From Gammaproteobacteria bacterium RIFCSPHIGHO2_12_FULL_35_23 (GTDB taxonomy: Bacteria; Pseudomonadota; Gammaproteobacteria; UBA12402): a DNA stretch of 64,000 bases. Below, one piece after another: positions 1 to 54,079 of the stretch. Position 1 is the first letter of the stretch. Every line of letters starts with the position of its first letter. The DNA lies in the NCBI GenBank assembly GCA_001801465.1, contig MGXT01000017.1:22362-86361 (forward strand), given 5' to 3'. The notes below the pieces were generated by a model. That model saw only the letters and a program-made list of their open reading frames with translations, had not been told where the DNA came from and ran no database searches. Position numbers and translations under genes: made by a program.

Positions 1-305
1 TTGATTATGATAAGTAAGTGTTGCATTTTTAATGCTAATGCCAGGTGCATGCAAGTGCTTTTCCTCCGCCAGTATAAACTGTATCAGGTTCAAAGGGTCG
101 ATGCTCAAACATCCTCTCAGCCAAAGGCTCCCCTAAGCAGATAATACCATGTATTCTAAAGATATTTTTCTTTTTTGTATAGATACTTTATTAAAAAACA
201 AATTATTTAATTTAGATTAAAGATTTAAATTAATTAGTAGGCTGTATGGATATTTTTTAAAAAGATTAGTTTATTCTTCACTTTTTAATAGTAATAGTTG
301 GCGAT

Positions 306-9379: not shown

Positions 9380-10153
9380 ATGAATAAAAAATTACTAGTC
9401 GTATTAATTGCAATTTGCAGTTTAAGTGGAAGTTATGCTTTGAGCTGCGATTCAAAAGTTCCAAGTGATTTGTTGCCGCAATTTGCTAACCAATCAGTCA
9501 TTACTAATAGTGGCTGGGTTTATGTAGCTGCTCTGCCAAATACTACTGCCGCAACTGATTCTTCACCAACTCCAGCAGCAGCGAATGTTACCAACTCAGA
9601 AAATTCTGTTCCTAATTCAGTAGCTAATAATAGCAATGCAGCGACTTTAACTTCGGTTAATGAAACAGATTCGGATGCGAATCCAGTTACCAGTTCTGCA
9701 GAGGCAACAAATGGGATTGTTACGCCAGATGATAATTCAGAAGCAGTAAGCTCTGATCAAACCAAGCAGGCAGAGAGCTCAACAAATAATACGATCACCT
9801 CCTCTACTTCCCAAAGTAGTCCAGGTGTCAATTCGACAACCAATAATACAGGGCCTACTTTGCCACCACCTGTCGTTATTCCGTCGGGGGCTTCTTTTCA
9901 ATTACAAAGTGTTGAAATGGGTGAAATTCCACAGCCAGATGGATCTACCATTGCAGGAATATTATGCACTTATCAAGATCAATCTTCAGGCATTACTGTG
10001 ACCGCCTTTAAAAAAGGTTACTATTATATTGTGCGCAATAATGATACAAAATGGCAGCAAACACCCGGTTCAAATGGTATGATTTGTACTTCAGCGAATG
10101 CTTACATCAATCCAAAAGACTGTCTATTTGATCAAATTGTTAATTGGCCGTAA
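9380..10153 (+). CDS. secreted Ser/Thr/Asn-rich low-complexity protein with Cys-containing C-terminal domain
   Basis: 257 aa. Signal peptide (MNKKLLVVLIAICSLSGSYA). About 120 aa of S/T/N/A-rich low complexity, then a roughly 90-aa C-terminal module with 3 Cys. No family recognised. Confidence 0.5.
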   Translation: MNKKLLVVLIAICSLSGSYALSCDSKVPSDLLPQFANQSVITNSGWVYVAALPNTTAATDSSPTPAAANVTNSENSVPNSVANNSNAATLTSVNETDSDANPVTSSAEATNGIVTPDDNSEAVSSDQTKQAESSTNNTITSSTSQSSPGVNSTTNNTGPTLPPPVVIPSGASFQLQSVEMGEIPQPDGSTIAGILCTYQDQSSGITVTAFKKGYYYIVRNNDTKWQQTPGSNGMICTSANAYINPKDCLFDQIVNWP

Positions 10154-20444: not shown

Positions 20445-20464
20445 CTTAATATTATTTTAATATT
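20445..20464 (+). promoter_or_regulatory. putative PmrA-type regulatory element (tandem cTTAATATT-AT-tTTAATATT) upstream of the ankyrin gene
   Basis: Two 9-bp direct repeats separated by 2 bp, followed 7 nt later by a TATATT -10-like hexamer. The start codon is at 20510. Matches the published PmrA box of Legionella/Coxiella effector promoters (cTTAATatT-N2-cTTAATatT). Confidence 0.45.
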
Positions 20465-37081: not shown

Positions 37082-37201
37082 GCTAATAATTTGAATAGAT
37101 TCATAAAATAAATATTTTATGAGGCTGTTTTAATCAGGTAATCAATTCTATAATTATAATTAGGTACATTGGTGCTGGCAAAGGACTGCAAGAAAGGTGC
37201 A

Positions 37202-37993
37202 ATGATGGTTTTTACTAAAGAACAATTAGATGCTATTATTCAAAATCCCACTGCAAGCAAGTTGCATAACTTCTTTTTTAGAGATCGGGTTATTCTTGCT
37301 GCAAGACAACGATTTAGTGCTTGGTCGGGTGAGCTTAGTTTAGAGCAACAATTGGCAGTTATTCAATTCTTTTTGGACAATAAACCGATAGATGTGTTGC
37401 AAGCTGAAGCCGCGAGCCCATCTTCCTATTGGTCAAAAATTCTAAAAGCGCTATTTAATATAGGTGACGGGCCTGCCAAGGCAAAAGAATTAAGCTTTTA
37501 TTTAATATGCCTTTACCAAAAAGAAATTTTAACACTGGATTTATTTAATAGGTTAACCAACTTTACAGATAATTCAATTGTGATGGCTTGGTCATTACTC
37601 GTGCTTCATGCAGCAGGCTTACTTACTGATGCTAACAAAAAAACCCTTTTTAAATTTGTAGAGAGTGAATATTTGCGAGATATTTTGTATGTTCTTGCTA
37701 GGGAGCATTTGTTAAGTTTATATAATTTTAAACATATTACTAGCTGTGCTGTATTTATACCGCTACATAATTTACTGGTAAGATTATATGACAGTGGGGT
37801 GGTACTTACCCAAGAAGAATTAACACGGCTATTGAATTTAAGCGATAAAGGGTTAAGAGAATATAAAAGAGAAGCAGTAGCAGGAGATTTTTTAAAGACT
37901 TTTAAAAGAGTTTTTGCTGCTGAAGAAGAAGGGTATGGGCTTTACTCTTTATTAGATGACCAAGATTTATCGTCGCCTTTGAGTGTTCCTTAA
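37202..37993 (+). CDS. hypothetical protein (candidate accessory/effector protein)
   Basis: About 264 aa from the ATGATG start (AAGAAAGGTG SD). Helical, Leu-rich, no recognisable domain. Occupies the position where many gammaproteobacteria carry pdxJ/acpS after recO. Confidence 0.45.
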   Translation: MMVFTKEQLDAIIQNPTASKLHNFFFRDRVILAARQRFSAWSGELSLEQQLAVIQFFLDNKPIDVLQAEAASPSSYWSKILKALFNIGDGPAKAKELSFYLICLYQKEILTLDLFNRLTNFTDNSIVMAWSLLVLHAAGLLTDANKKTLFKFVESEYLRDILYVLAREHLLSLYNFKHITSCAVFIPLHNLLVRLYDSGVVLTQEELTRLLNLSDKGLREYKREAVAGDFLKTFKRVFAAEEEGYGLYSLLDDQDLSSPLSVP

Positions 37994-47403: not shown

Positions 47404-47421
47404 TTGGAAAGGAGAGCCATC

Positions 47422-47775
47422 ATGCAGAAATTTTTTGTATGTATTATTCTAGTAGGACTTAGCTTTATTCTTTCAGCTTGTAATACCACTCGTTTTGCTT
47501 ATCCAAATGGCAATAGTAAATTTACAGTTCTTGCAGCTTCTAATTCCCCTGTGGAAAGTGATAATCGTGCTTATAGTAAAGCACAGTCGATATGCAATAA
47601 TTTTGCTGCTACGCCTAGCATTATTCAGGTAGATCGAGTACCCAATAGCGTTTCTCAGATTTTTATCGGTAATCAAGTAGTTTATATAACGCCTGCTTAT
47701 CAGAAAAATGATTATATGACAATTATGCAAATTCAGTGTGTTCCCAAACCAGTGCCTAAAAATAATTCCAAATGA
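47422..47775 (+). CDS. putative lipoprotein, unknown function
   Basis: About 117 aa from ATGCAGAAA (GGAGAG SD). Lipobox LSFILSAC. Confidence 0.45.
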   Translation: MQKFFVCIILVGLSFILSACNTTRFAYPNGNSKFTVLAASNSPVESDNRAYSKAQSICNNFAATPSIIQVDRVPNSVSQIFIGNQVVYITPAYQKNDYMTIMQIQCVPKPVPKNNSK

Positions 47776-47886: not shown

Positions 47887-48738
47887 ATGAGCATGAAAAA
47901 ATTTGGATTAACTATATTATTACTAAGTGTTTTATCTCTGAGTACTTATTCAGTTTTGGCAGAAACTGCCATTACAAAAGGAGCTTTTTCTTTAACACCT
48001 TTTGCCTCTTATTATAGCTTTTCTAGTAAGCGGCATTTAAAAAGTGGCGGTGGTTTAGGTTTAGGGCTTGCTTATTATTTTAACAATAACTGGGCAACAG
48101 AGTTGAGTGGTAGTGAATTTGCTACTAAACAAAGTCGCTTGCCTGAAAAAAGTGTAGATGGGCAGTATATAACATTAAATGGCCTTTATTATTTTAGATC
48201 AGGAATGGGTTTTAGACCTTATCTTTCAGCAGGAATTGGTGCGTCACATTTTAGCCGTAATAGTAATAACAATCCAAGTACTCAGGGCAATGTGGGAGTA
48301 GGTGGAGGAGTTATTTATTTCATTGATCAATCTATTGCTTTACGTGCAGGTGCCAACGATTATTATAATTTAACAGGGAGTGGTAATAATGATGTGGCCC
48401 TACAAGGCGGAGTAAGTTTTTATTTTGGTGACCGTGGTGATGAATCTTCTGGCACTTCAACTGAAGAGGCTGCTCAAGAAACCGCCGAAAATGTTTATGT
48501 ATTGCCTGATGAGTCAGAAACTAATGCGAGCGATATCACAACGCCAAGCACTACTCCTGCTTCTTCAGCAAAACAAAAACAAGCTTTTATTGCTGCAGCT
48601 GCAATAGAGGCTAGTAAATCTACTCCAAATACGAAAGCAGTAGCTTCAACTCCTACTCAAAAAGCTTCAAATAGTAGTGATAATACCTCTCAGAAAGTTA
48701 ATACAAATAACCCAGACAATAATAATTTATATAATTGA
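47887..48738 (+). CDS. outer-membrane beta-barrel protein (OmpA-like 8-strand barrel / OMP_b-brl) with Ser/Thr/Asn-rich C-terminal tail
   Basis: 283 aa. Signal peptide (..SVLA-ETA). About 160 aa with alternating aromatic/Gly beta-strand pattern (GLGLGLAYYF, GLYYFRSG, GVSFYFG), then about 100 aa of low-complexity S/T/N/A. No OmpA_C peptidoglycan-binding domain. Confidence 0.5.
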   Translation: MSMKKFGLTILLLSVLSLSTYSVLAETAITKGAFSLTPFASYYSFSSKRHLKSGGGLGLGLAYYFNNNWATELSGSEFATKQSRLPEKSVDGQYITLNGLYYFRSGMGFRPYLSAGIGASHFSRNSNNNPSTQGNVGVGGGVIYFIDQSIALRAGANDYYNLTGSGNNDVALQGGVSFYFGDRGDESSGTSTEEAAQETAENVYVLPDESETNASDITTPSTTPASSAKQKQAFIAAAAIEASKSTPNTKAVASTPTQKASNSSDNTSQKVNTNNPDNNNLYN

Positions 48739-49290
48739 ATTAGCTGCTGGTTCTCTTAACCTTTCGACGACTGATAATCTACTTGAACGGAATTGAGATT
48801 GTCTTAATACATATATTAAAAAAGCCTGAAAGCCAGTGGGAGTTAAAATCATATCTAAAAAAATATTACTATGAAAAAAATAGCCAAGAGGCCTTAATCT
48901 ATTACTAGGTGATGGACTTCTTCTAAGAGCTAATTCATGTCCATGAGATGTAGTAGCCTCGCTTTCTGTTTGTAATATTCTAGGATCAGAACGTATTAGT
49001 TCTTCTAAGATGTTGGTAGAAGATGGATTACAAATGTTTTCATAGGGAAACTTTAAAAACTCATTTAAAGCGTTCATTATATCTGAAAAAAGTTGTATAG
49101 ATTTTTTACCTGCTCTAATCATTTGTTGCCCACATGGTAAAGTATTAAAACGTAATGAACGGGAAATTTCTGGAAATTTAACTTGAATTAAAAATTGTTT
49201 TACTGCAGAAGCATATTCAGGATTTTGCTTAGCAAAAAGACGAAGCATTTTGACATTATTAAGCCCAATAGAACTAAGAGGAGTAATCAT
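48727..49290 (-). CDS. hypothetical protein, paralogue B of the MITPLS.IG family
   Basis: 187 aa. N-terminal approximately 90 aa are about 50% identical to the ORF at 52148-52594 (MITPLSSIGLNNVKMLRLFAKQNPEYASAVKQ.. vs MITPLSAIGRSSVKMLTLFAKQCPKYANAIKQ..; shared FN.LPC motif). TAAGG SD. The C-terminal 45 aa may be read-through into the convergent OMP gene. Confidence 0.5.
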   Translation of the reverse strand: MITPLSSIGLNNVKMLRLFAKQNPEYASAVKQFLIQVKFPEISRSLRFNTLPCGQQMIRAGKKSIQLFSDIMNALNEFLKFPYENICNPSSTNILEELIRSDPRILQTESEATTSHGHELALRRSPSPSNRLRPLGYFFHSNIFLDMILTPTGFQAFLIYVLRQSQFRSSRLSVVERLREPAANSII

Positions 49291-49442
49291 AATTAAAACC
49301 TTATTTAATTTATTAATATTTTAAAATAGCCTATTTTAGCATAAAAAATTACCATTTTACTAAGATAAAAATGCTATTTATCTTAGTGAGTAAGGAATTG
49401 ATTTTCTTATTTGTTACTAATCGCTTTAATATTAATCTCAAA

Positions 49443-51902
49443 TCACCTTTTGAGTCTTTGAGCTTCAGGATCTGGATTAGCTACTGAGGCAGTAGTACTA
49501 GCAGCAGCAGGGAATATTCCAAATCTATCTCGGCCCGCGCCACCACCAACTCCACCGCTACCAGCTCCTGTTGCAGCAGCAGGTGTTAGAATATTTGAAC
49601 TAGGATCTGGATCAGCTACTGAGGCAGTAGTACTAGCAGCAGCAGGGAGTGTAAATCTACCTTGATCACCACCAGCTCCAGCACCACCTTCGCCACCACC
49701 TCCTGAAGTAGTAGCAACTGCTGCTGAGGCAGCAGCTTCTAAACTTCTTAAAGCTTCAGCAGATAATGTACTTTCTAATTCTATAAATGAAACAGGAACC
49801 CCATAAGCTGTACCTAATTGAACTAATTTTTGCTTTGCTGAATTTGCTCGTTTTAAGTTATTATCATAGTCATCATCATAGCTAATATTTATGATATGAT
49901 CTTTAAGCGTGGTAGTAGCTAATTGCAATAATTCTTTGTCAGTTTCTGTAACCTCTTCACTGGGAGTAGATTCTAAGAACTCAATAATTGTTTCTATTAA
50001 CTGAATTTTTAATACATTGTGTATTGCATTTTCTGTGGGAATAGCCCGATAGATTTTTAATGCCTCTTCTCTATTTCCTCTTTGTATATAGAATGCAGTT
50101 TGCAAAGCTAAGGATTTATGCAAGGTAGAGGTTGGTACACCATCAATTATTTTTATTGCTTCAAAAAAAATAAAAGGAGTGTTAGAAATAACCGTAGGAT
50201 AATATAAAAAATCTAAATAAAGAAAACCAATAACTTGTGATAATATTGCTAAAGAAGATAGTTTTTCTTCTAAATCTGTACGAGTAGGATCTGTATTTAA
50301 TAGTAAAATACAGCGATAAGCTTCACGTAGAGAAGGATTGTCAGAAGGCCATTTAAATTTGCTAAAAATGGCTGCTTCAGCTGCAGAATCTAAATCGATT
50401 CTTGTAGCAAAAAGAGTTGGTTCAGTTTGAATAAGAGAAAAGTGATGCCAGTAAATTGCATTCATATTCTTTTTACTATAATAGTAATAATCAGCCAGAC
50501 ATTTTTCAGCTAAACCATCTCCTCTTAGAGGGAAACCCATCAATTTTTGAAAAAAACACTTTATAGATGTTTGGCTTTTTATTTCTTTTAACATAGAAAG
50601 TAATATTAGAGGAATTTTGGCTAATTCATCCACGCGATAATCTAGTCGCCAAACCCTTAAGCAATAAGCTAAAGCTGGATATCGTGATATAGTAACTTTT
50701 ATAGATTTATTTATTGAAGAAGAAGTAGAGGAACTAATAACATTTTTTGCTGTAATGAACCAGTCAACTATCATATCAGCATCACGACAAAGTATAGGGG
50801 ATTTAACTTCCGAAAGAATACCAATTAATTGCTTACTTACTTGAAACATTGATAAAGGCTCATTGCAAATAGCTGCTTCAATTAAAGCTGAGAGATGATC
50901 TTCCCCAAGTTCTGGGTTGTCTGCATAAAGATGGTAAAGTGCATTAGATGCCTTTATATAACATTGAGCTACGGATAGCTTAAAGCACTCTGCAGCTTTA
51001 AGTAAAAGGATTTGTGCTTGTTCAGGATCACTGGCTTTTAATGCAATTGCTTGCTTCTTATAAAAAACACCTAAGCTAAACTGTTCACGAGACGGCAGAG
51101 AGCTTGGATCTTCAACAGGAATAGGCTCTTCTGCTCTTAGCATTTTTATGATAAATGATGCTTCTAAATCACCAGCACTTTCAGCTGCTGATAAAAGACT
51201 TTTCCGTTCTGTGCTAGAAATTGTATGATATTTTCTTAAATCAAGACGAACAATAGTGGTTCCGGCCCAGGGGACAATATCCTTATGTTCGTTTAATAGA
51301 CCTATACCTTCTAAAACTTTGTCTCTTTCATAAGTTACAAGCTTAAGTGCTCGAAGGCAATGGGAGCGCGCTTGAAGGCTAGGATTTTCTGATTCTTGAT
51401 ATTCCTCTATTTTAGAGTTAATTAATGTAAATTGATCATCTTCTGTTAGTGTTTTTTCTATAAAATGATACATGAGAAAAGCTGCTGCTAAACTAGCTTT
51501 TTGAGGATCTTCTGAGAATAAATCATCTAACTTTACACTTAGCTGCTTAGTTAATCTTTCATTAAATATGGTTCTTTGAGTGATGACAAGATGTAAATAT
51601 TCTTGCAGTTTTAAAATTGAATCACCACTTTCAACTTCCCCTGGATTGGTTGTAGCAGCATCATCAACATTATCAGGGGGATCATCTGTAAGTCTATCAG
51701 GATCAGCAGTTGGTGGTTTTGGCTCGCCACTAAAATGGGAAAGAAAATCTTGATCTAGAATAATAGTACGACCGTCATCATCTAGAGCTCTTTCTCTTCG
51801 AATACGATCAAGGGTTCTGAGAGTACTCGCTGCAGCAGCACCAGTAATAGTTGGTTCACCGCTAGGATTTTCTTCTCTAGTTGAAGTAGCTGTTCTTAGC
51901 AT
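49443..51902 (-). CDS. large hypothetical protein with disordered Pro/Asp-rich N-terminus and C-terminal Gly/Ala/Thr-rich tandem repeats (candidate secreted effector)
   Basis: 819 aa. AAGAGGAAAT SD. First about 110 aa low-complexity (PKPPTADPDRLTDDPPDNVDDAATTNPGEVESGD). Roughly 600-aa helical core with no recognised domain. C-terminus carries two or more copies of a 45-aa unit (..F(T/G)(L/I)(P/F)PAAASTTASVA(D/N)PDP..). Confidence 0.6.
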   Translation of the reverse strand: MLRTATSTREENPSGEPTITGAAAASTLRTLDRIRRERALDDDGRTIILDQDFLSHFSGEPKPPTADPDRLTDDPPDNVDDAATTNPGEVESGDSILKLQEYLHLVITQRTIFNERLTKQLSVKLDDLFSEDPQKASLAAAFLMYHFIEKTLTEDDQFTLINSKIEEYQESENPSLQARSHCLRALKLVTYERDKVLEGIGLLNEHKDIVPWAGTTIVRLDLRKYHTISSTERKSLLSAAESAGDLEASFIIKMLRAEEPIPVEDPSSLPSREQFSLGVFYKKQAIALKASDPEQAQILLLKAAECFKLSVAQCYIKASNALYHLYADNPELGEDHLSALIEAAICNEPLSMFQVSKQLIGILSEVKSPILCRDADMIVDWFITAKNVISSSTSSSINKSIKVTISRYPALAYCLRVWRLDYRVDELAKIPLILLSMLKEIKSQTSIKCFFQKLMGFPLRGDGLAEKCLADYYYYSKKNMNAIYWHHFSLIQTEPTLFATRIDLDSAAEAAIFSKFKWPSDNPSLREAYRCILLLNTDPTRTDLEEKLSSLAILSQVIGFLYLDFLYYPTVISNTPFIFFEAIKIIDGVPTSTLHKSLALQTAFYIQRGNREEALKIYRAIPTENAIHNVLKIQLIETIIEFLESTPSEEVTETDKELLQLATTTLKDHIINISYDDDYDNNLKRANSAKQKLVQLGTAYGVPVSFIELESTLSAEALRSLEAAASAAVATTSGGGGEGGAGAGGDQGRFTLPAAASTTASVADPDPSSNILTPAAATGAGSGGVGGGAGRDRFGIFPAAASTTASVANPDPEAQRLKR
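49468..49648. repeat. 46-bp near-perfect direct repeat (two copies 135 bp apart) inside the 3' end of the 819-aa ORF
   Basis: GGATCTGGAT(T/C)AGCTACTGAGGCAGTAGTACTAGCAGCAGCAGGGA at 49468-49513 and 49603-49648, 45/46 identical. In-frame 45-codon periodicity. Confidence 0.85.
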
Positions 51903-52147
51903 TTATATTTCCTCTTTTACTAATTCTTAATAATTCCTCACGATCACCGCTACAATGTAGTCAGCATGCTAATGCCAGGAATATCCGCCAGTTTTTATGC
52001 CATTTCATGTTGCTGATATAGAGCAGTCAGTTCATTTTCATAATATTCTATTTCTTGATTAGCTCACAATACAATTGACTTAAAATACGCTGCGTTAATG
52101 GCGTCAGCTTATCATTTTCATTTCACGAATCCTTATAGCATGCTGCT

Positions 52148-52594
52148 CTAATTATTTCTTGATAACAAATCAAATTCGGGAGGACTAGGAACACGATCGG
52201 GATCGGGATCAGTCGTCAGAATCAGATTAGCCTGACAAAAAAAAGCATGTATTCCTGAAAGCTGTGTTGTAATATCAGCGTATCGTAGTTTAGGGTATGT
52301 TTCTCTAAATCTATCCGTTTCTAAAATTCTAGTAAAGGTTGAGCTACTTTCAGAGACTAAAAAATTATCTAAAGCTCTCATTGTTTCAACTGAAAGTCTA
52401 ATAGTGCTTTGCCCTGAGCTAGTTATTCTTTCGTCGCATGGTAAAGAATTAAAATGTACTGAGCGTGAAAATTCAGGGTATCTAATATAAGTCAAAAGTT
52501 GTTTTATGGCATTAGCATACTTAGGACACTGTTTAGCAAAAAGAGTTAGCATTTTTACACTGGAGCGGCCAATAGCGCTAAGAGGTGTAATCAT
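52148..52594 (-). CDS. hypothetical protein, paralogue A of the MITPLS.IG family
   Basis: 148 aa. Paralogous to 48727-49290. Located immediately upstream (same strand) of the 819-aa gene. Confidence 0.5.
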   Translation of the reverse strand: MITPLSAIGRSSVKMLTLFAKQCPKYANAIKQLLTYIRYPEFSRSVHFNSLPCDERITSSGQSTIRLSVETMRALDNFLVSESSSTFTRILETDRFRETYPKLRYADITTQLSGIHAFFCQANLILTTDPDPDRVPSPPEFDLLSRNN

Positions 52595-52795: not shown

Positions 52796-54079
52796 TTATC
52801 GCTCATCAATAGCAACAAAGTCGCGTTTAGTATAGCCAGTATAAAGTTGTCTGGGCCTGCCAATTTTATAAGCATTACTCAGCATTTCATTCCAATGAGC
52901 AGCCCAACCTACAGAACGTCCTAAGGTAAAAATAACAGTAAATAAACGAGAAGGTATCCCTAAAGCACTTTGTGTAATTCCAGAATAAAAGTCCACATTT
53001 GGATAAAGCTTTCTTTCTAAAAAATAAGCATCTTCTAATGCAATTTTTTCTAAGGCTTTAGCAACTTTAAATACTTCTAATTCATGGGAACCGGTTTCTT
53101 CTAAAACATCATAACAAATTTTACGCATGACGCTCGCACGAGGGTCATAGTTTTTATAAACTCGATGGCCAAAACCCATTAACCGAAAAGAATCGCTTTT
53201 ATCTTTTGCGCGTGCGATATAATGAGGAATGCGATCAACAGACGCAATTTCATGTAGCATATTAAGTGCTGCTTCATTAGCACCGCCATGTGCGGGACCC
53301 CATAAAGCGGTAGCTCCAGCTGCAAAAGCAGCAAAAGGATCAGTATCAGTTGAGCCTGAAAGTCTAACAGTTGAAGTAGAAGCGTTTTGCTCATGATCTG
53401 CATGTAAAACAAAAATAGTGTCCATAGCTTTACATAAAACAGGATTAGGTTTATCAGTATCACTTGCTTTGCCATACATCATGTAAATGAAATTTTCTGA
53501 ATAAGTTAAATCTTTGCGTGGACTAAGGAACGTTTCGCCTTTTCCATGTCTATAACACATGGCAGTTAAAGTAGGAATCTTAGCAACAAATTTAATTGCG
53601 GCATCCATTCTATCACTGCTATTTTTAATGTTTGTTTGATCATGATAAAGGCCTGCTAAACTTGCAATGGCAGCAGTGATCATGGCCATAGGATGAGCTT
53701 CTTTTTTAAAGCCTTTAAAAATATTTTCAATGATTGGGTCAACGGCCATATGGTCATTAACTTTTTTCTCAAAAGCCGTTTTTCCTGCTTGAGTAGGTAG
53801 TTCACCGTTTAAAATTAAATAGCAGACTTCCATAAAATCTGATTTTTCTGCTAGTTGGTCAATCGGATAACCTCGATAAAGGAGTACCCCTTTACCACCA
53901 TCAATGAAGGTTATTTTTGATTCACAGGCAGCGGTTGCCATAAAACCAGGATCATAAGTAAAGGCTCCGGATTTACCCAGGGAGCTTACCTCAATAACAT
54001 CTTGGCCTAAAGTAGGTCTATGTATAGGAAGCTCAACGCTGGCATTGTTAAAATTTAATAGCGCTTTATCATCATTCAT
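52796..54079 (-). CDS. gltA: citrate synthase (type II, hexameric Gram-negative type)
   Basis: 427 aa. Signature GFGHRVYKNYDPRA and catalytic His/Asp context. Divergent from sdhC as in E. coli. Confidence 0.95.
   Translation of the reverse strand: MNDDKALLNFNNASVELPIHRPTLGQDVIEVSSLGKSGAFTYDPGFMATAACESKITFIDGGKGVLLYRGYPIDQLAEKSDFMEVCYLILNGELPTQAGKTAFEKKVNDHMAVDPIIENIFKGFKKEAHPMAMITAAIASLAGLYHDQTNIKNSSDRMDAAIKFVAKIPTLTAMCYRHGKGETFLSPRKDLTYSENFIYMMYGKASDTDKPNPVLCKAMDTIFVLHADHEQNASTSTVRLSGSTDTDPFAAFAAGATALWGPAHGGANEAALNMLHEIASVDRIPHYIARAKDKSDSFRLMGFGHRVYKNYDPRASVMRKICYDVLEETGSHELEVFKVAKALEKIALEDAYFLERKLYPNVDFYSGITQSALGIPSRLFTVIFTLGRSVGWAAHWNEMLSNAYKIGRPRQLYTGYTKRDFVAIDER

Follow-up and report, generated by a model that had tools for sequence, protein, structure and literature searches.

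Described systems with a comparable organization

The nearest analogs of the three-gene locus analyzed here are, we presume, the lineage-specific orphan Dot/Icm effector genes of Legionella and Coxiella, including adjacent effector-metaeffector pairs. The Dot/Icm C-terminal translocation signal comprises a Glu-rich 'E-block' and small polar residues, and a PmrA-type box is present upstream of a subset of the effectors. The locus resembles these genes in that its members are orphan, adjacent and co-oriented, in that the large product is helical with low-complexity ends, and in that its genome is AT-rich and also carries, ahead of an ankyrin-repeat gene, a PmrA-type box. In contrast, its own genes have no recognizable C-terminal signal, eukaryote-like domain or PmrA box. 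The analysis covered a 64-kb stretch of DNA (hereafter the window, i.e. the whole sequence that was analyzed) and short contigs identical to it.

Classical or class I secretion chaperones, which are acidic (pI about 4-5) alpha/beta dimers, offer another comparison. As with the T3SS class I chaperones (CesT/SycE), a protein of roughly 150 aa (about 130-160 aa in these chaperones, 148 and 187 aa here) is encoded beside a large one with a disordered N-terminus; however, the small proteins of our locus are basic, modeled as all-helical (at low confidence) and without a Pfam or NCBIfam match, and here two paralogs with unrelated tails bracket the large gene. With regard to T6SS adaptors, Pfam revealed no DUF4123, DUF1795/Eag or DUF2169 domain in the small proteins, and instead of a spike/Rhs context (PAAR/VgrG/Rhs) the neighbors are gltA, sdhCDAB, a porin gene and glpK. 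Comparison with the TPR/HAT/ARM alpha-solenoids (LapB, Ctr9, Ski3, karyopherins and the OGT/SPINDLY TPR domains, among others) gave Foldseek E-values of at least 1e-3 and TM-scores of at most 0.28, and none of the module's structure models, all of them low-confidence and all-helical, has a specific fold match. Unlike TPR/Sel1 proteins, which have repeats of about 34-40 aa, the large protein shows no Pfam TPR/Sel1 match up to an E of 10, and a test for repeats within its core detected none beyond those of shuffles.

Organization and coding status of the locus

The locus consists of three co-oriented minus-strand genes between an outer membrane protein gene and gltA, precisely as the initial annotation had placed them:

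47887..48738, plus strand: OprF/OmpA-type beta-barrel (porin) gene with a Pfam match; left flank and left border of the islet
48727..49290, minus strand: smallB, a 187-aa orphan (OGT31136.1, A3E87_04440; pI 9.9)
49359..49387, minus strand: AT-rich 11-bp hairpin (centroid structure), 56 nt past the large-gene stop codon
49443..51902, minus strand: large orphan protein of 819 aa (OGT31137.1, A3E87_04445; pI 5.1)
52148..52594, minus strand: smallA, a 148-aa orphan (A3E87_04450, annotated 'hypothetical protein'; pI 8.5)
52796..54079, minus strand: gltA, citrate synthase, right flank and right border of the islet (PF00285 on the identical gene of a retrieved contig)

The product of the porin gene matches OprF (2.4e-12) and OMP_b-brl (2.1e-11) of Pfam over aa 11-182 and bears a C-terminal extension of ~100 aa of low complexity. 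The last 12 nt of smallB overlap the 3' end of this convergent gene, and the islet occupies a convergent 3'-3' junction between gltA and the OprF-type porin gene. No competing ORF of at least 60 aa is found on the plus strand inside the module.

In shuffled windows the longest stop-free stretch is at most 186 codons, which excludes chance as the origin of the 819-codon ORF. The large gene further displays a coding-type periodicity matching that of host genes (GC1 0.50 versus GC3 0.17), and an allele in the same read set is 98% identical with an in-frame 48-nt (16-aa) deletion. Stop-free stretches of at least 148 codons occur 0.17 times per shuffled window, so that length by itself does not make the small ORFs improbable; coding support for them comes from protein-level conservation accompanied by synonymous changes. 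These sequence features indicate that all three genes are real coding sequences. The four retrieved contigs are all identical to the window, and hence provide no population variation with which to gauge constraint on the large gene or on the tails of the small ones.

The proposal that each gene has its own Shine-Dalgarno (SD) sequence holds well for the large gene, which has a good SD-like AAGAGGA 8 nt before its ATG, whereas the SD-like sequences of smallA (AAGAG) and smallB (TAAGG) are weaker. Consensus scans of the module for promoters and terminators returned nothing above chance, and the folding of the spacers is not significant. The hairpin downstream of the large gene is possibly a weak terminator or stabilizer, with a whole-spacer folding z-score of only -1.27 and no terminator found by the consensus scan.

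The small paralogs

The two small genes share an N-terminal module, of which a part is constrained:

49054-49290, minus strand: N-module of smallB, by paralogy with smallA
52358..52594, minus strand: shared N-module, smallA codons 1-79 (BLASTP and DNA repeat D1)
52436-52594, minus strand: constrained part of the smallA N-module, codons 1-53 (dN/dS)

The paralogy is as clear and ungapped as originally described, but it spans residues 1-79 rather than the first 90 or so: BLASTP aligns these residues without gaps at 53% identity (E 7e-30), and the tails past residue 79 show no likeness above shuffles (SW score 22, against an average of 24.5 for the shuffles). At the DNA level the shared part is a direct repeat (D1) of 237 nt and 70% identity, with one copy on either side of the large gene. 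The dN/dS of the pair is 0.13 over codons 1-22, where 9 synonymous changes are present, 0.29 over codons 1-53 and 1.37 over codons 54-79, with a dS of about 0.6-0.8 for the duplication; these ratios show that codons 1-53 are under purifying selection and that codons 54-79 are not, the sequence past codon 53 having diverged freely. Past the shared module the frames remain open for 69 codons in smallA and 108 in smallB. Both proteins are basic, the N-module having a pI of about 10, and the AF2 small-protein model is all-helical at low confidence, with two short helices, one spanning residues 10-22 and the other 24-36. Further copies of the paralogs were not found within the 64-kb window, and the idea that the N-module also recurs inside the large protein was rejected (hhalign probability 0.1; weak BLAST matches).

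The large protein

Three regions can be distinguished in the 819-aa protein:

51627-51902, minus strand, aa 1-92: acidic, probably disordered N-terminus rich in Asp, Thr, Ala, Pro and Arg (pI 4.3)
49725-51626, minus strand, aa 93-726: all-helical core (AF2, low confidence)
49446..49724, minus strand, aa 727-819: Gly/Ala/Thr-rich C-terminal tail with two 45-aa repeats (direct repeat D3)

This is the architecture of the initial annotation, namely a Pro/Asp-rich N-terminus, a helical core (here a low-confidence prediction) and 45-aa Gly/Ala/Thr-rich repeats. The repeat unit, present in exactly two copies, is composed of a G-rich stretch followed by RF..PAAASTTASVA[DN]PDP, and in the DNA it has a 135-nt period with 47-nt cores at 49467-49513 and 49602-49648 that are 98% identical. 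The AF2 model of the large protein has helices as its only secondary structure, with a mean pLDDT of 42 and values above 60 only at aa 590-710. At such low confidence (pLDDT 42 and 50 for the structure models), statements about the fold are weak.

Homology searches

Searches of Pfam (E up to 10), NCBIfam (E up to 1), PHROGs, PADLOC and PDB sequences recovered no family for any of the three proteins, in agreement with the earlier impression that they belong to none that is recognizable. An exhaustive HMMER search with the large core against 1.84 billion representatives recovered its own genome only, even at E 0.001, and a word-index search with the large protein returned only the 98% identical allele. 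Likewise, a database search with smallA yielded the self-match alone, a profile of the small pair run against 5.8 billion proteins retrieved only smallA and smallB, and their alignment detected no relatives in genome, metagenome and viral contigs (collections from which the source contig itself was not returned, and may be absent). Matches to ENP2 (E 0.02-0.4) and to phrog_23663 (E 0.005, a family of unknown function) were treated as noise. The three genes are strict orphans in every searched collection. The small proteins do not belong to a family scattered without linkage to the large gene, given that its sole two members among the 5.8 billion proteins are these linked genes; the large protein, for its part, has no homologue and is therefore not a common housekeeping protein. 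The nearest genomes are only 55-65% identical in core enzymes, the nearest one about 60% in gltA, sdhA and sucA, and the 'no homologues' result partly reflects poor sampling of the lineage. A literature search with the name of the metagenome-assembled genome (MAG), Gammaproteobacteria bacterium RIFCSPHIGHO2_12_FULL_35_23, found no papers.

Genomic context and an IS110 relic

The host is an AT-rich gammaproteobacterium that branches deeply and is known solely from a MAG, and the chromosomal neighborhood of the islet is entirely housekeeping. Gene neighborhoods with gltA homologues of 60% identity were found, and in the nearest syntenic genome (L007) sdhB-A-D-C, gltA, the porin gene and glpK occur in the same order and orientation; there, the porin orthologue adjoins gltA, with a gap of only 94 nt at the position of the module. 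Its presence is thus a lineage-specific difference between the two genomes and probably an insertion, although in a comparison of two genomes alone it may also reflect loss from L007. The GC and GC3 of the islet are indistinguishable from those of host genes, so that any transfer would be old, and the islet lacks an integrase, an intact transposase, a tRNA and terminal repeats.

A frameshifted transposase relic lies in the 245-nt spacer that separates smallA from the large gene:

51904..52069, minus strand: IS110-family transposase relic, corresponding to transposase residues about 188-272 (custom HMM, tblastn)

About 165 nt are left of it, spread over two reading frames and interrupted by stop codons, ending 2 nt before the large-gene ATG. 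The relic matches the C-terminal (Transposase_20-type) region of IS110 transposases, with the conserved ...IPGIG... and ...SG....ISK.GN motifs; in contrast to an IS110 element it has no N-terminal DEDD catalytic domain, C-terminal third, ends or intact ORF. The assignment is supported by a custom HMM (i-E 7.7e-7 and 5.4e-5), by tblastn over the window (E 1.75e-4) and by matches of the spacer on plasmids, 8 of 9 of which fall on IS110 transposases; a Pfam scan of the stitched relic peptide gave no match. Neither an intact IS110 nor any other copy occurs within the window. The large-gene SD AAGAGGA (51910-51916) coincides with the K-R-G codons of the relic, and a stop codon lies directly upstream of the large-gene start. 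These matches show that the spacer formerly carried an IS110 element, whose relic now supplies the ribosome-binding site of the large gene. That an element was inserted and decayed here argues against tight operon coupling of small and large gene, at least on that side.

We also considered whether the smallA tail or the N-terminus of the large protein derives from the IS110 transposase; a z-score of 4.45 against a Mesorhizobium transposase fell to 1.3 with a second transposase, and a 10-sequence HMM run with filters off found nothing, so that this idea was rejected. An origin of smallA and the large gene from one gene split by the IS is unlikely, as smallB is a free-standing gene of comparable size and the parts are not connected by any homology.

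Functional inferences and alternative explanations

We regard the locus as an orphan-gene islet of an ordinary kind and not as a new system whose existence has been demonstrated, and our proposals on its function are conjectural. We favor its interpretation as a lineage-restricted accessory islet of three orphan genes and a dead IS110 remnant. We regard the structural and evolutionary part of this explanation as highly probable and the functional part as a guess of doubtful standing; the explanation as a whole, proposed roles included, has a fair claim that nevertheless falls somewhat short of an even chance. Under it, the large acidic protein would be all-alpha, probably a scaffold of the solenoid type whose acidic and Gly/Ala-rich ends are flexible, and would most likely serve as an accessory protein-protein interaction protein. 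It could also be exported or host-directed in an effector-like manner, a candidacy suggested by an ankyrin-repeat gene at another position in the window. In the small proteins, the conserved N-module may be a common docking or targeting element for one shared partner, either the large protein or a cellular machine, and the variable tails would carry different activities.

The 'Legionellales-like' and 'host-interaction' labels of the initial annotation rest on circumstantial evidence, namely a 623-aa ankyrin-repeat protein encoded 28 kb from the module, with a PmrA-type box (CTTAATATTATTTTAATATT) located 46-65 nt ahead of the start of its gene. Upstream of the module genes themselves no exact TTAAT-N6-TTAAT box occurs, the only one-mismatch site overlapping the smallB SD. 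The three proteins contain no detected transmembrane segments and no recognizable secretion signal, and their C-termini (...STTASVANPDPEAQRLKR, ...PSPPEFDLLSRNN and ...VVERLREPAANSII) are polar with single Glu residues and, by eye, no clear E-block. It is with little expectation that we entertain the trio as an undescribed host-interaction module of a deep-branching Legionellales-like bacterium, in which a secreted alpha-solenoid effector would act with two basic partners carrying a new, conserved 53-residue docking or translocation domain and divergent tails conferring different specificities.

The more specific idea that the small proteins escort or neutralize the large one, as chaperones or adaptors of an effector or as immunity proteins or adaptors of a toxin, draws on the adjacency and co-orientation of the genes, the sizes of the small proteins (148 and 187 aa), which resemble those of chaperones, the constrained N-module that they share as a potential common binding surface, and the disordered ends of the large protein, which are seen in many secreted substrates. 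Nevertheless, both of them have basic pI values (8.5 and 9.9; about 10 for the N-module) and all-helical models, no chaperone, adaptor, toxin or immunity family is matched in Pfam, NCBIfam or PADLOC, where none of the three proteins revealed a toxin, immunity or defense domain, and the decay of an IS110 between smallA and the large gene implies that tight translational or transcriptional coupling was not essential. We infer that the small proteins fall outside the classical chaperones, toxins and immunity proteins; the effector/chaperone or toxin/immunity/adaptor logic originally suggested gained no positive support, and we consider it highly improbable. If instead the islet were leftover cargo of a decayed mobile element, with the small proteins as DNA-binding regulators duplicated around a cargo gene and no host-directed role, one could account for the IS110 relic within it, its absence from the syntenic L007, the 237-nt direct repeats around the large gene, and the N-module with its pI of about 10 and helix-turn-helix-like pair of helices at residues 10-36 (in a low-confidence model). 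Against this, no HTH, Xis or regulator is matched, the single PHROGs match (E 0.005) being to a family whose function is unknown, and viral contigs yielding none; the hallmarks of mobility (integrase, intact transposase, tRNA, terminal repeats) are missing; and the host-like GC and GC3 make any transfer old. We view such an origin as unlikely.

Decay of the reading frames themselves is another option, with one of the small genes as an incomplete duplicate that continues into junk sequence, the large ORF deprived of its 5' end by the IS110 event, and the trio as a whole heading for pseudogenization. The abrupt end of small-gene homology at codon 79, the dN/dS of about 1.4 over codons 54-79, the construction of the large-gene start and SD from the IS relic with a stop codon immediately upstream, and the chance frequency of ORFs of at least 148 codons (0.17 per shuffled window) are consistent with it. 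However, the 819-codon ORF is intact and its independent allele differs by a deletion of 48 nt that is in frame, codons 1-53 of both small genes are under purifying selection after an old duplication (dS about 0.6-0.8), and tails of 69 and 108 codons are open where, by a base-composition estimate, stops are expected about every 14 codons; decay is in our estimation very unlikely. A lineage-specific cellular function unrelated to a host, for instance a cytoplasmic or envelope scaffold with two small regulators in a deep and unsampled lineage, would fit the 55-65% identity of the nearest genomes in core enzymes, the entirely housekeeping neighborhood and the native codon composition. It is harder to reconcile with the absence of the islet at the conserved junction in L007, with the lack of any match among 1.84 billion representatives even at E 0.001, and with the IS scar that marks the site as plastic, and we accord it a small probability only.

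Implications

The accessory islet presents a clean example of how orphan genes build up at a junction of convergent genes: a relic of an insertion sequence has been recycled as the ribosome-binding site of a neighboring gene, and a duplicated small gene has retained constraint on its first 53 codons only. It also offers a caution, in that 'no homologue in billions of proteins' coincides here with a nearest sequenced neighbor only about 60% identical in core enzymes. If export and interaction prove true, the locus would represent two new protein families and a new arrangement of small partners and a large scaffold, in an unsampled relative of intracellular gammaproteobacteria.

Anatomy and orphan status of the islet

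ORF calling reproduced exactly the three minus-strand ORFs of the initial annotation, and the opposite strand within the module contains no ORF of at least 60 aa. The genes and their neighbours are:

52148-52594, minus strand: smallA, 148 aa ORF
49443-51902, minus strand: large gene, 819 aa ORF
48727-49290, minus strand: smallB, 187 aa ORF
47887-48738, plus strand: left neighbour, OprF-type porin (OprF and OMP beta-barrel family match over residues 11-182, then a low-complexity tail)
Right neighbour: citrate synthase (gltA), then sdhCDAB in the divergent direction

All three products are labelled 'hypothetical protein' by NCBI (A3E87_04440, _04445 and _04450, MAG RIFCSPHIGHO2_12_FULL_35_23), and the earlier statement that they belong to no recognisable family is borne out by family and homology searches, which return nothing beyond the proteins themselves and one allele. 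Searches of Pfam (to E 10), NCBIfam, PHROGs, PADLOC and PDB sequences gave nothing credible for any of them, and a word-index search of 5.8 billion proteins yielded no more than smallA itself and an allele of the large protein at 98%. A profile built from the two small paralogues returns only these two linked genes, rather than a small family scattered elsewhere; likewise, an exhaustive HMMER search of 1.84 billion cluster representatives with the core of the large protein (its low-complexity ends removed) found only itself. The large protein is thus not a housekeeping protein, and neither of the two outcomes named initially as refuting the module was obtained. Scans of genome and metagenome contigs missed the window's own locus when given patterns from it, even though contigs identical to it are present in JGI, ENA and Logan; the source locus may be absent from or masked in the scanned collections, and the negatives from these scans therefore weigh less. 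Furthermore, gltA, sdhA and sucA of the nearest genome reach only 55-65% identity, so that fast-evolving accessory genes would be undetectable anyway.

The large protein and the small paralogues

The 819-codon ORF cannot be due to chance, the longest stop-free stretch in 30 shuffles of the window being 186 codons, and its GC1/GC3 contrast (0.50/0.17) is like that of housekeeping genes. Its product has an acidic N-terminus (aa 1-92; pI 4.3) rich in Asp, Thr, Ala, Pro and Arg, a core (aa 93-726) that is entirely helical in the AlphaFold model, and a Gly/Ala/Thr-rich tail (aa 727-819) in which a 45-aa unit occurs twice, with 98% identity between the two 47-nt cores in the DNA. The core contains no internal sequence repeats above shuffles; thus the earlier description of the protein as repeat-containing holds for the tail only. 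The AlphaFold models, built from one or two sequences, are of low confidence: that of the large protein has a mean pLDDT of 42 and exceeds 60 only at residues 590-710, and that of the small protein, also all-helical, has a pLDDT of 50. In a further allele of this protein, from the same read set (SRR3990167), an in-frame deletion removes 16 residues (EALKIYRAIPTENAIH; aa 615-630, about 50013-50060, minus strand) inside the sole confidently modelled helical segment; the difference is due either to heterogeneity in the population or to a variant of the assembly.

SmallA and smallB are indeed paralogues, aligning without gaps over residues 1-79 (53% identity, E 7e-30); the corresponding DNA forms a direct repeat of 237 nt, 70% identical and spaced by 3304 nt. 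The similarity begins at the ATG and ends at codon 79: tblastn found no frameshifted continuation, and the tails (69 and 108 residues) resemble each other no better than shuffled sequences do. The length of a small ORF alone is unremarkable (0.17 stretches of at least 148 codons per shuffled window). In the shared part conservation is lowest at third codon positions, and dN/dS, though from small counts, is 0.13 for codons 1-22, 0.29 for codons 1-53 and about 1.4 for codons 54-79. The shared part thus evolves as protein, and each small protein combines an N-terminal module of about 53 residues, which is constrained, with a remainder that diverges freely. The smallA tail is acidic, ending in an EFDLL stretch, and that of smallB is basic and more hydrophobic. 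The smallA tail (52151-52210, minus strand), the N-terminus of the large protein (aa 67-77) and both C-terminal repeats (aa 764-767 and 809-812) all contain short DPDP, DPDR or NPDP motifs, a recurrence that may be compositional.

An IS110 relic between smallA and the large gene

The 245-nt smallA-large spacer is more than plain intergenic sequence: it contains, in two frames, the translations ...NQEIEYYENELTALYQQHEMA*KLADIPGISMLT... and ...FLALAC*LHCSGDREELLRISKRGN, with asterisks for stop codons. Eight of the nine plasmid matches to the stitched peptide are IS110-family transposases; a Mesorhizobium IS110 transposase matches 52060-51959 (E 1.75e-4 over the whole window) and a Vibrio transposase is 52% identical to the second piece. 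An HMM built from ten plasmid IS110 transposases and run without filters aligns its positions 188-225 to 52069-51956 (i-E 7.7e-7) and 246-272 to 51984-51904 (i-E 5.4e-5). The Shine-Dalgarno sequence of the large gene, AAGAGGA (51916-51910), consists of K-R-G codons of the relic, which ends 2 bases short of the large-gene ATG, with an in-frame TAA immediately upstream. These matches and their position indicate that an IS110 element once inserted here; it was later worn away by deletions from both sides. The current translation start of the large gene is either adjacent to the scar or was made by it. The window contains no intact IS110 copy.

The junction in a syntenic genome and the surrounding genes

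A gltA-based scan of species-representative genomes yielded no close relative (top match 60% identical). The nearest syntenic locus (MAG_CA28) keeps the order and orientation that sdhB-A-D-C, gltA, the porin gene (orthologue of 40% identity) and glpK (55%) have in the window, and its gltA-porin gap is only 94 nt. At this convergent junction the three genes and the scar thus constitute a lineage-specific difference, for which an insertion is the simplest reading, with loss in MAG_CA28 as the alternative in a comparison without an outgroup. In GC and GC3 the module is at the native level or slightly below it, so any acquisition would be old.

Past its beta-barrel the porin continues for about 100 aa (48430-48738, plus strand) in a C-terminal extension rich in Ser, Thr, Ala and Asn, and the final 12 nt of the gene overlap the end of smallB. 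Tails of low complexity seem to be habitual in this genome and are for that reason a weaker mark of effectors. A 123-aa ORF (47404-47775, plus strand) located between the glpK and porin genes has a lipoprotein-type signal (…LSFILSAC…), no Pfam match and no counterpart at the corresponding place in MAG_CA28; it adds another small lineage-specific gene next to the islet. Apart from the ankyrin-repeat gene described below, the rest of the window is housekeeping (mfd, clpB, smc, zipA, lepA, relA/spoT, sdh, sucA); its sole Rfam match is a TPP riboswitch at 44-144, minus strand (RF00059, 67.9 bits, E 3.3e-11), and two further plus-strand ORFs, 9380-10153 (257 aa) and 37169-37993 (274 aa), lack Pfam matches at E 1e-4.

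The only clearly eukaryote-like gene found in the window (20510-22381, plus strand) has a product of 623 aa that contains several ankyrin repeats (Ank_2, 9.7e-20). PmrA-box arrangements lie upstream of Legionella and Coxiella effector genes. In enterobacteria the box comprises CTTAAT-type half-sites with a 5-nt spacer (PMC3973317). This arrangement, two CTTAAT-like half-sites with a 5-nt spacer, is seen in CTTAATATTATTTTAATATT (20445-20464, plus strand), 46-65 nt upstream of the ankyrin-repeat gene. Such patterns number 2 in the window versus 1.5 expected, which is not above chance; the position of this one is suggestive of a predicted PmrA-type control of an effector-like gene. No such box lies upstream of the module genes, whose host-interaction flavour comes only from this context.

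Functional interpretation

Maintained genes, an orphan islet, an insertion-sequence scar and a conserved junction are established. We propose that the large acidic helical protein might be an accessory interaction scaffold, possibly exported, and that the small basic proteins might have a common docking or targeting module. The chaperone and toxin-immunity readings offered initially are mildly disfavoured: no positive evidence for either was found, the small proteins have a basic pI, the models, though of low confidence, are helical, and an IS inserted between smallA and the large gene. Besides the preferred scaffold reading there remain the remnant of a decayed mobile element in which the small proteins would be DNA-binding regulators, ORFs in decay, and a lineage-specific cellular function in unrecognisable form. 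MAGs of unsampled lineages commonly contain such orphan trios; the most instructive details of this one are the half-constrained pair of paralogues and the recycling of the IS110 relic.
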